The notes below the pieces were generated by a model that was not told where the DNA came from, did not search any database, and saw only the letters and a list, made by a program, of their open reading frames with translations. The position numbers and the translations under genes were made by a program. Of a stretch of DNA of 64,000 nucleotides, positions 4,646 through 6,702 are shown piece after piece. Position 1 is the first letter of the stretch, and every line of letters begins with the position of its first letter. Source of the stretch: a virus (taxonomy: Duplodnaviria; Caudoviricetes); IMG/VR virus record IMGVR_UViG_3300021411_000006, positions 1 to 64,000 of that record. One strand, written 5' to 3'.

Positions 4646-4717
4646 CCTGGGGTAGAGCAGCGGTAGCTCGGCAGGCTCATAACCTGTAGGTCGCGGGTTC
4701 GATTCCCGCCCCCGGAA
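4646..4717 (+). tRNA. tRNA-Met(CAT), initiator type; CCA not encoded
   Basis: CCTGGGG TA GAGC AGCGGTA GCTC G GCAGG CTCATAA CCTGT AGGTC GCGGG TTCGATT CCCGC CCCCGGA A; C1:A72 mismatch and A11:U24 are initiator hallmarks. Confidence 0.93.
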
Positions 4718-4720
4718 CAA

Positions 4721-4939
4721 ATGAAAGGACGAAAGGGATTAAGAGATCTTGGACCGTACCTGGTCGATGAGCGGCAGATAGGTAAACTGGTTGACGAAAC
4801 GAATGCCATTGTTATGGATTGCGTAGACGACCGGGACCACCATAAGCCCAGGATAAAAGTGATTCGAACAAGTAGTAAACAGTTGTATATCGGAGGCAGT
4901 ACAGTCGCTGTATTCCACATCATAAAACCTAACAAATAA
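4721..4939 (+). CDS. hypothetical protein
   Basis: 72 aa ORF starting 3 nt after the tRNA discriminator base. Confidence 0.6.
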   Translation: MKGRKGLRDLGPYLVDERQIGKLVDETNAIVMDCVDDRDHHKPRIKVIRTSSKQLYIGGSTVAVFHIIKPNK

Positions 4940-4945
4940 AAACAC

Positions 4946-5158
4946 ATGGCAAACCAGAAACTATTTCAGTATGCTATCCTTTGGCATCCGACGGATAAGC
5001 AAAAAAAAGATGACGGTGCAAAACCAAAAGTGATCGTAGAAATTAAAACTATCCTGGCGGCGGATCAGCAAGGCGCAATGATGGCGGCGGCGATGGAGAT
5101 CCCGCTGGAATATAAAAACCAGCTCGATCAAATTGAGGTAGCGGCGCGCCCTTTTTAA
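4946..5158 (+). CDS. small phage protein ending RPF; probable -1 frameshift extension to 5331 (128 aa form)
   Basis: 70 aa ORF; C_CCT_TTT heptamer directly before the stop; -1 frame open to TGA 5329-5331. Confidence 0.8.
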   Translation: MANQKLFQYAILWHPTDKQKKDDGAKPKVIVEIKTILAADQQGAMMAAAMEIPLEYKNQLDQIEVAARPF

Positions 5159-5239
5159 TACCGGGTGAACAAAAGGCGCAGGAGGCTAAACATTCACTGG
5201 ACCAGGTAGGACAGCTCCAGTCGTTTAGGCGTTCACCCG
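5135..5239 (+). promoter_or_regulatory. candidate -1 programmed ribosomal frameshift signal
   Basis: GAGGT 5135-5139; heptamer CCCTTTT 5149-5155; 6-nt spacer; stem CGGGTGAAC(5162-5170)/GTTCACCCG(5231-5239). Confidence 0.7.
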
Positions 5240-5327
5240 ACAAAAACCTCTTTAAGGGTAATTTTTTGATGCAGGAAGAACTGCCGGAAGTATCGGCTAC
5301 TTACTATACGGCTTCGCAACTTTTGAA

Positions 5328-5732
5328 ATGACAACATACTGTAACAAGTGTGGAATAAACTGGGTAGCGCTGTGGAGTCAGGATCTGGAGCATGAAGACG
5401 AGAGCTATGAATATTGCCCGCTGTGTTGTACCGGAATGGATCTGGAGGAAGGAAGAGAAGGGCCTGCATATATGATGGATATCGGAACCAGTGAGATTGT
5501 AGACCCGGCCACTGGAGAGATTCTGCCGACCGGAGCGCCGATAGCGCTGCCGCCCAGGATTAGGAAAAAGAAGATTTATACGGAGACTGTGGATGAGTAT
5601 GACGAGCGAAGGATAACGCTGGAAGATCAAAGCCTGGAGGAATATTTTAGAATGTGCAAACTATACGGGAAAGAAAAGGCCGCGACGATGGTGACCTGGC
5701 GAACAACGGAAAGACAATTTTATTACGAATAA
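5328..5732 (+). CDS. hypothetical protein with two CxxC motifs (Zn-binding)
   Basis: CNKC and CPLC motifs. Confidence 0.7.
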   Translation: MTTYCNKCGINWVALWSQDLEHEDESYEYCPLCCTGMDLEEGREGPAYMMDIGTSEIVDPATGEILPTGAPIALPPRIRKKKIYTETVDEYDERRITLEDQSLEEYFRMCKLYGKEKAATMVTWRTTERQFYYE

Positions 5733-5746
5733 AAAACTAACAACAC

Positions 5747-6340
5747 ATGGGACTTGGAAACAACAACGGCAGATTTACCTACGCAAACATTACGAAAGGG
5801 AAAGTCGCCGTAAAACAGGACGGAGTAGTAAATCTTTTTGGTTACGTCGAGGGCTGGCTGAGAGATATAGAGGTCCGCGATGATGAGTATAAAAACATAA
5901 AGTATAAAAAGCTTTGCCTAGTACTCAGCGACGGGACGGAAACTTTCCAACTTCAAATGAAACTGAACAGCGGATACGGTCGGGCTTTCTGCAAGATTAT
6001 TAAAAACGCAGACCTTACAAAACCCCTTCGCCTCCAGCCTGCTTATAGCGAAGACAACGATAAGAAAAGTACCAGCATGTTTATCGATCAGAACGGTAAT
6101 AACCTAAAATGGTACTACAAAAACTCAGAACTACGCGATCTCCCACCGATGGAACAGATAACCTTCAAAGGTGAAACTGTTTGGGACGACTCAAAGCAAC
6201 AATTATTTTTTATCAATATGCTGCTCAATGAAATCCGGCCTCAGCTCGATGCTGCCGCCCTGGAAGTACACACGCCAATAGCTGCCTTTCCACAGGACCA
6301 GGCACCTACTGACAGCGCGCCCGATGATCTACCTTTTTAA
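5747..6340 (+). CDS. putative single-stranded DNA-binding protein
   Basis: beta-rich core and acidic tail ending DDLPF, typical of SSBs. Confidence 0.65.
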   Translation: MGLGNNNGRFTYANITKGKVAVKQDGVVNLFGYVEGWLRDIEVRDDEYKNIKYKKLCLVLSDGTETFQLQMKLNSGYGRAFCKIIKNADLTKPLRLQPAYSEDNDKKSTSMFIDQNGNNLKWYYKNSELRDLPPMEQITFKGETVWDDSKQQLFFINMLLNEIRPQLDAAALEVHTPIAAFPQDQAPTDSAPDDLPF

Positions 6341-6366: not shown

Positions 6367-6702
6367 ATGCCTTACACGACTCCGCCGCCGACCATGAGTA
6401 AAGAAGTGCTAACGATTATAACAACAGTAGGCGAAAGGACCCACGCCTCGCCGCAGGAGATCCTTTCACCAAGCCGGGAGCGGCCATTCCCTTACTCGCG
6501 AAAGCTGTCAGTTTATTTCATCCGGATTTTTCTTCCCGATATCGGTTGCCCGCATATTGCAAAAACTTTTGGCTGGAAGAAAAAACATGAAATGGTTTCC
6601 CAGTATTATAAGCAGATAAAGGACCAGGTAACAAGCGAAGGGAAAGTACGATCCGATGTACGGGAGATTGAAAGTATTTTAAAAACACTATTACAGAGAT
6701 GA
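6367..6702 (+). CDS. DnaA C-terminal (domain IV)-like HTH protein
   Basis: EILSPSRER....SRKLSVYFIR....IGCPHIAKTFG.KKKHEMVSQYYKQI parallels the DnaA domain IV pattern. Confidence 0.6.
   Translation: MPYTTPPPTMSKEVLTIITTVGERTHASPQEILSPSRERPFPYSRKLSVYFIRIFLPDIGCPHIAKTFGWKKKHEMVSQYYKQIKDQVTSEGKVRSDVREIESILKTLLQR

Follow-up and report, generated by a model that had tools for sequence, protein, structure and literature searches.

The first 64,000 nucleotides (nt) of IMG/VR virus record IMGVR_UViG_3300021411_000006 (Duplodnaviria; Caudoviricetes), the whole stretch analyzed here and called the window below, hold near 5 kb a 70-codon phage gene that ends in a canonical slippery heptamer directly before its stop codon. 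A sequence-only reading of the window had proposed that this gene carries a -1 programmed ribosomal frameshift (PRF) yielding products of 70 and 128 amino acids (aa), and that the shift is stimulated by an upstream Shine-Dalgarno (SD)-like element and a downstream hairpin. The sequence features that it listed are all in place, apart from a 1-nt error in one distance, and a comparison of 66 homologous loci supports the frameshift and its two products, although not every part of the proposal. The features that make up the system are the following, the last being context rather than a conserved partner.

4946..5158, + strand: zero-frame open reading frame (ORF) of 70 aa (...IEVAARPF, stop TAA), part of a large unannotated phage protein family.
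5149..5155, + strand: slippery heptamer C_CCT_TTT (pattern X_XXY_YYZ), with a T_TTT core that is invariant across the family.
5156..5158, + strand: zero-frame stop TAA, immediately after the heptamer, whose T completes both a run of five T and the first -1 codon, TTA (Leu).
5162..5239, + strand: candidate frameshift-stimulating RNA structure, a 9-bp closing stem with about 60 nt of further pairing inside.
5155..5331, + strand: -1 frame extension of 58 codons plus TGA (LIPGEQ...ASQLLK), which would be read only after a shift, to give the 128-aa trans-frame product.
5296..5328, + strand: conserved C-terminal motif of the extension, ATYYTASQLLK, which contains its sole conserved columns.
5328..5732, + strand: 134-aa CxxC...CxxCC zinc-ribbon gene, whose ATG overlaps the TGA of the extension (ATGA).

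The zero frame of the 70-codon gene closes with CGC (5147-5149), CCT (5150-5152), TTT (5153-5155), and TAA (5156-5158). From position 5155, the -1 frame reads LIPGEQKAQEAK...ATYYTASQLLK, so that the predicted junction of the shifted product is ...AARPF/LIPGEQK and its predicted tryptic junction peptide is NQLDQIEVAARPFLIPGEQK, trypsin leaving Arg-Pro uncut. Six codons before the slip site, the -1 frame is closed by a stop, its earliest start codons (TTG at 5266 and ATG at 5269) lie 37 codons past the slip site, and the TGA that closes it (5329-5331) overlaps the ATG at 5328-5330 of the zinc-ribbon gene. A second assembly of the same sample has the same run of five T and covers 4900-5268 without differences.

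Homologues of the 70-aa protein form 116 clusters at 90% identity, nearly all of them exactly 70 aa long, and an exhaustive profile search gave 734 clusters at 50% identity; among the best 149 representatives of that search, the C-terminal residue is phenylalanine in 135 and the protein ends in RPF in 116. No member carries a name, nearly all being annotated as 70-aa hypothetical proteins, and we found no description of the family or of its recoding site in the literature. As a mechanism the proposed recoding, canonical -1 PRF, belongs to a known kind; what is new is the gene family that it would affect. Loci were fetched from IMG/VR (17, recovered by an alignment-based scan where a single-sequence scan had given nothing), from metagenomes (63), from a Bacteroidia metagenome-assembled genome (one), from the 735-kb phage LR756501 (one), and from several long contigs. 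Comparisons below use the 66 distinct homologous loci among them, whose proteins share 43-79% aa identity; the recurrence of the arrangement in all of these makes it more than a chance juxtaposition. The homologue in the 735-kb uncultured phage (LR756501.1, 1501-2279 of the fetched locus) is 43% identical and ends GTG CGC CCT TTT TAA.

Conservation of the slip site extends to its nucleotides. A T ending the penultimate codon, a phenylalanine codon (65 TTT, 1 TTC), and a stop immediately after are found in 66/66 loci, as is the U_UUU or U_UUC tetramer, and C_CCT_TT(T/C) is kept in 50/66, where the final three codons are CGC CCT TTT (49 loci) or CGC CCT TTC (one). The other 16 loci differ in the first half alone, with AAA, ACA, AGA, CGA, or CGT before CCT, AGG, GTG, or TCG before GCT, CGT before TCT, or AAG before GTT. 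Third codon positions are conserved at 0.76 (R), 1.00 (P), and 0.98 (F) in the final three codons, compared with 0.35-0.70 elsewhere in the last 12 codons, and synonymous conservation is restricted to these three. The codons retained are not those the genes otherwise favor: in the gene bodies CGC makes up 8% of arginine codons (AGA 61%) and CCT 25% of proline codons (CCA 51%), with TTT at 64% of phenylalanine codons. Homologues encode the RPF ending with slippery codons, contrary to their own codon usage. In four more distant members, the zero frame continues for 2-4 codons past the site, yet C_CCT_TTT or C_CCT_TTC is retained, with -1 ORFs of 29 codons (running off a contig end) and of 56-127 codons. 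In Escherichia coli, H_HH.U_UU.Y heptamers rank with the most efficient shift sites, and U_UU.Y tetramers tend to shift if a 3' stimulator accompanies them (PMC4066793), in agreement with the majority form of the site as well as its degenerate forms.

The same pattern bears on a simpler slip, in which tRNA-Phe alone would move on U_UUU while the zero-frame stop stands unread in the A site, the termination pause acting as the main stimulator and C_CC and the stem modulating the level. The invariance of the T before TTT and of the adjacent stop in all 66 core loci speaks for such a slip, as does the behavior of U_UU.Y tetramers in E. coli (PMC4066793), and the 16 loci with A_CCT, T_CCT, G_GCT, T_TCT, or G_GTT keep a long -1 ORF and its terminal motif. 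The C at -6 and the CC at -5/-4 are nevertheless conserved at 0.76-0.98 in opposition to codon bias, which is expected only if re-pairing of tRNA-Pro matters, and the four distant members hold C_CCT_TTY with the stop 2-4 codons away, so an adjacent stop is not required. We regard slippage of tRNA-Phe alone as the less probable route, though one with perhaps a one-in-several claim to be correct, and prefer tandem slippage of both tRNAs on the heptamer.

Downstream of the heptamer, the window contains a perfect 9-bp stem, CGGGTGAAC (5162-5170) with GTTCACCCG (5231-5239), that begins 6 nt past the slip site and encloses two further complementary pairs, CTAAAC/GTTTAG (5186-5191/5223-5228) and CTGGA/TCCAG (5197-5201/5216-5220). 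The rod-like fold first suggested for this element has a free energy of -21.9 kcal/mol, against -27.5 for the minimum free energy (MFE) fold; the outer stem is common to both. Taken by itself the element is more stable than expected (z -2.9; 2/200 shuffles fold as well), whereas the fold of the wider 196-nt region of the window is unremarkable (z +0.4). The comparative signal is one of position. When, for each offset, the best helix that could start there within 110 nt was scored and the scores averaged over 63 loci, the mean reached 15.0-17.1 at +6 to +9 nt past the heptamer (peak 17.1) and was 9.32±0.59 elsewhere. The MFE in a sliding 60-nt window likewise has a local minimum at the site (p = 1.4e-4), and the 90 nt after the stop have a mean z of -2.0 across loci. 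The stem arms vary in sequence and remain complementary, enclosing loops of 3-72 nt: compensatory arms are CGGGUGAAC / GUUCACCCG in the window, GAAGUGAAUU / AAUUCACUUC in L010, GGGGUGAGUU / AACUCAUCUU in L037, and CCGAAGCAUUA / UAAUGCUUCGG in L017, and the stem of L050 reaches 16 bp. The position of the stem is kept across homologues, with compensatory changes and with helices that begin 5-7 nt past the heptamer. Searches with Rfam and ARAGORN found nothing near the locus except a tRNA-Met.

The downstream helix and the conserved C_CC also distinguish ribosomal slippage from slippage of RNA polymerase on the T run, by which some mRNAs would be one U shorter and carry the extension in frame with no shift by the ribosome. 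The run is homopolymeric and invariant (five T, six in L072), as this explanation needs. Productive transcriptional slippage is known from runs well above five residues in length. A run of five is short by that measure and selection has never lengthened it, and a conserved C_CC together with a position-locked RNA helix are signatures of slippage by the ribosome, which leaves slippage by the polymerase very improbable.

The sequence past the stop behaves as a coding region in the -1 frame. This frame runs for 30 codons or more (median 61) before a stop in 63/63 loci where it closes inside the contig, compared with 12% for shuffled downstream sequence; the +1 frame and the frame that readthrough would use are short. 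Between independent related pairs, differences at -1-frame codon positions 1/2/3 number 73/68/110 (p = 0.002), and this third-position bias extends along the whole extension. Start codons inside the -1 ORF are scattered or, in L008, missing altogether, and several loci have no usable one. The -1 stop overlaps the start of the next gene or lies within 10 nt of it in 24/46 scorable loci, so the extension fits into the row of genes in the manner of an ordinary gene. Gene callers miss these extensions of roughly 170-250 nt: in two of three long contigs examined the extension was left empty, and in the third only a short internal ORF was called.

The extensions themselves are rich in S, T, N, and G, of low complexity, barely alignable, and from 30 to 190 aa long across the family. 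What is conserved lies at the end, where a motif with the consensus (A)TYx[S/N]A[A/S]x[L/I] stands 0-11 residues from the C-terminus; 44/64 loci match it strictly, and most of the other 20 have looser variants when judged by eye, for example, SYMANSI and TFNAAKLL. AlphaFold2 (AF2) gives the window extension no secondary structure except a short helical turn in the tip, with a predicted local distance difference test (pLDDT) score of about 60-70 that rises to 79-85 over the motif, and the tail is predicted to be disordered. The extension of the 735-kb phage reaches about 188 aa and contains a long collagen-like G-X-Y repeat (GTSGTSGTSGSSGTSGTDGMAGYSGPKGPQG...), which suggests that the tail serves as a spacer of variable length.

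One lineage carries both parts in a single frame. The protein P0154 (110 aa; L086, L087, and L088, 1501-1833), present on at least five contigs from three sources (ENA, NCBI, and Logan), joins an N-domain to an extension as ...VRPF-LEQSS..., so that its RPF-L junction is the one predicted for the shifted product; the predicted extensions of two other loci start in a similar way (LEQS.. in L013 and LEQP.. in L083). The junction DNA, CGT CCT TTC TTG, has lost all slippery features, and the 90 nt downstream contain no unusual structure (z +0.6). With a non-slippery, in-frame junction, this lineage can make only the long form. P0154 came from the exhaustive profile search, a word-index search for longer in-frame forms having returned an N-terminal miscall only, and no other long in-frame fusion is present among the 116 clusters or the best 149 profile-search representatives.

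Open -1 frames and the fusion together speak to the possibility that nothing is recoded, the 170-nt gap before the zinc-ribbon gene being non-coding (a structured regulatory RNA or a terminator) or translated only as a 20-aa ORF from the ATG at 5269. That short ORF does include the conserved motif in the window, and the hairpin might pass for a regulatory or terminator-like element. Yet 63/63 loci, against the 12% expected, have a -1 frame that is open from the slip site onward, and the third-position bias runs along the entire extension. Start codons within it are absent, as in L008, or randomly placed, so the internal ATG is not a sufficient explanation. No T-run follows the window hairpin and Rfam has no match for it, the synonymous constraint on the heptamer would be left without a cause, and P0154 shows the extension made as a fusion. 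An absence of recoding is very improbable, a shade more so than slippage by the polymerase. Weakest of all is the view that a sequencing or assembly indel, or decay into a pseudogene, has split one 128-aa gene: homopolymer runs are error-prone and one lineage does have both parts in a single frame, but 66 distinct loci, drawn from independent samples and assemblers, show the same split and T5 run, as does the second assembly of this sample, and in the in-frame lineage the codons themselves have changed (TTC TTG), which is more than a difference in run length, so that we give this view next to no credence.

What the sequences show is a set of conserved signals, a -1 frame with a coding signature, and one lineage with a natural in-frame fusion; slippage we infer from these, and on these grounds a conserved -1 PRF at the last two sense codons of this small phage gene is very likely. 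Most ribosomes would stop at the TAA at 5156-5158 and release the 70-aa α/β domain. Some would pause with tRNA-Pro on CCU and tRNA-Phe on UUU, we propose because the helix 6 nt downstream resists unwinding; the two tRNAs would then re-pair on CCC and UUU, UUA (Leu) would be read next, and translation for 58 codons would yield a minor 128-aa isoform consisting of the N-domain, a disordered linker, and a short conserved C-terminal peptide. No SD-like stimulator would be needed. Where the XXX part of the heptamer has decayed, the invariant U_UUU tetramer may still permit slippage of tRNA-Phe alone as a fallback.

Several observations count against this account or limit it. The 16/66 loci with no canonical XXX in the heptamer indicate that tandem slippage is not the sole route, and about 10/64 loci have no significant downstream structure. 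Among sequencing runs, the stretch occurs in DNA contigs of one soil metagenome only and in no listed RNA run. Neither the 70-aa protein nor its extension matched any family above threshold in sequence searches of Pfam, PHROGs, NCBIfam, PADLOC, or PDB, and the basis for the function proposed below consists of protein architecture and genomic context.

Two subsidiary claims of the first proposal did not survive the comparison. An SD-like GAGGT at 5136-5140, formed by Glu-Val codons, lies 8 nt upstream of the heptamer (9 in the original description) and had been taken as a stimulator; an SD-like 4-mer occurs at the corresponding place in just 8/66 loci, the commonest upstream sequence being GAAATT. 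In the window as a whole, 34 ORFs encode 150 aa or more; no GGAG, GAGG, or AGGA core lies within 20 nt before the ATG of any of them, and their leaders are 44% A compared with 26% overall (e.g. AACAAATAAAAACACATG and AAAAAACTAACAACACATG). By its leader sequences the phage appears to be SD-less. Bacteroidia-type ribosomes ignore SD sequences (PMC10798248), and A-rich leaders that lack an SD core are consistent with a Bacteroidota-type, SD-independent host. The second claim, that frameshift efficiency controls the coupled zinc-ribbon gene at 5328..5732, does not hold in general because the downstream gene is not conserved across loci. The 134-aa zinc-ribbon protein has no match in Pfam, PHROG, or NCBIfam, and no homologue of it stands beside the family gene in the other loci; in three distinct loci (L008, L013, and L014) terminator-like hairpins follow the -1 stop. 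Given these differing downstream genes and hairpins, coupling cannot be a general feature.

Other genes of the window place the frameshift gene in its context:

4646-4718, + strand: tRNA-Met (CAT), 228 nt upstream of the frameshift gene, with an ORF starting at ATG 4721 almost directly after it.
5747-6340, + strand: 197-aa protein, probably a phage single-stranded-DNA-binding protein (SSB), ending ...QAPTDSAPDDLPF, an acidic tail with an SSB-like tip as judged by eye.
6367-6702, + strand: 111-aa protein resembling the C-terminal helix-turn-helix (HTH) of DnaA (PF08299, E 3.5e-7, 30.6 bits, below the cut-off of 31.5).

The 197-aa protein, whose C-terminus is ...APDDLPF, has no Pfam or NCBIfam match and matches phrog_19605 weakly; the 111-aa protein may be a phage origin-binding protein. 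SSB-like, DnaA-HTH-like, and primase-helicase genes follow the frameshift gene, nothing informative precedes it, and the virion genes (portal, terminase, and a 3064-aa ORF) lie on the - strand at 21-60 kb. The frameshift gene is part of the replication module, on the + strand and opposite the virion genes. This position and strand bear out the view, already taken in the sequence-only reading, that the site is not the tail-chaperone frameshift. At the DNA level, the tRNA alone matched GenBank phages in this region. A conserved gene neighborhood was looked for across the homologous loci and not found; since flanking genes share no homology between loci, the family gene is by far the most conserved element of its neighborhood. 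For example, it is flanked by a GroEL-like chaperonin and a clamp loader in L012 (690-3817) and by an exonuclease and crAss-type tail ring protein 2 in L013 (773-4275), a contrast that indicates that the family spans very different phage lineages, crAss-like phages included. Neighbors in further phages include AAA_24 and DnaB proteins, a radical-SAM protein, and glycosyltransferases.

What the two isoforms do can be proposed in outline. The AF2 model of the N-domain is a confident one (pLDDT 88.5) and has the topology β-α-β-α-α-β; its best fold matches, PurS, eL20, and PaaB (Z 6.1-6.8), are within noise for small α/β folds, and Foldseek (PDB and BFVD), VIA-align wide, and the ESM Atlas returned weak generic α/β matches only, among them phi29 p6, T7 Gp2, and Acr proteins, with nothing but unnamed viral clusters in the ESM Atlas. 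Because the matches are weak and generic, they were not used to assign a function. A predicted complex of the N-domain with the extension scored 0.01. As candidates for the terminal motif, we considered the β-clamp-binding motif, the SSB tip, an ssrA-like degron, and an encapsulin-type cargo peptide, and none fits the consensus. An N-domain strongly conserved amid unrelated neighbors, and a terminal peptide carried on a disordered tether, point to an important interaction. Our tentative suggestion is that the frameshift sets a fixed ratio of a free core to a tethered form whose C-terminal peptide would dock on a component of host or phage replication or of the early program. No more firmly, one might picture a two-isoform system of SD-less (Bacteroidota-type) phages from about 40 kb to 735 kb, in which (A)TYxSAxxL would serve to bring in a conserved factor of replication or gene expression, from host or phage, by analogy with τ/γ or G/GT and evolutionarily unrelated to either. 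The collagen-like G-X-Y repeats in the LR756501 tail may still leave room for a fiber-like role.

Known frameshifts share parts of this design. In lambda G/GT, too, a -1 shift takes place close to the 3' end of a small ORF, and recoding sets the proportion of a minor isoform that has the same N-terminal domain and an extended C-terminus. Phages with little other sequence in common conserve the G/GT recoding (PMC5009743), and the same is true of the recoding described here. Unlike G/GT, the present gene is not at the tail-tube/tape-measure position and has no Pfam or PHROG tail-chaperone match, its N-domain is highly conserved (43-79% identity) where G proteins diverge freely, its slip site, C_CCU_UUU, directly adjoins the stop and is followed by a 3' helix, and its extension is a disordered linker with a terminal motif rather than a folded T domain. 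The dnaX frameshift that produces τ/γ (A_AAA_AAG, an upstream SD, and a 3' hairpin) resembles it in having a canonical heptamer, a stable stem 5-6 nt downstream, and two isoforms of a replication-associated protein, one with an additional C-terminal docking sequence. The shifted product is the shorter one in dnaX and the longer one here, the SD-like element that contributes in dnaX is absent from 58/66 loci, and the protein is not an AAA+ clamp loader. Frameshifts at the 3' end that give a fraction of the molecules a C-terminal extension are also known from T7 10A/10B, T3, Lactobacillus phage A2, and Listeria phages A118, A500, and PSA (PMC5009743); those affect major virion proteins, often adding an immunoglobulin-like fold, in contrast to a 70-aa protein of a non-structural module with a disordered tail. 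Transposases of the IS3 and IS1 families shift at X_XXZ_ZZN heptamers or U_UUY tetramers that have a hairpin or pseudoknot on their 3' side (PMC4066793), whereas the gene studied here is a single-copy phage gene with no transposase domain and is not a mobile element.

For tailed phages, the known cases of conserved programmed frameshifting come mainly from tail chaperones, from capsid and tail extensions, and from clamp loaders. This family would be an addition to them, usable as a new training and annotation case for annotation pipelines and PRF predictors. A canonical heptamer and stem in phages of apparently SD-independent hosts would also make -1 PRF on Bacteroidia-type ribosomes readily testable. 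If the two-isoform reading is true, these phages would provide a natural model for SD-independent -1 PRF on the ribosomes of Bacteroidia.

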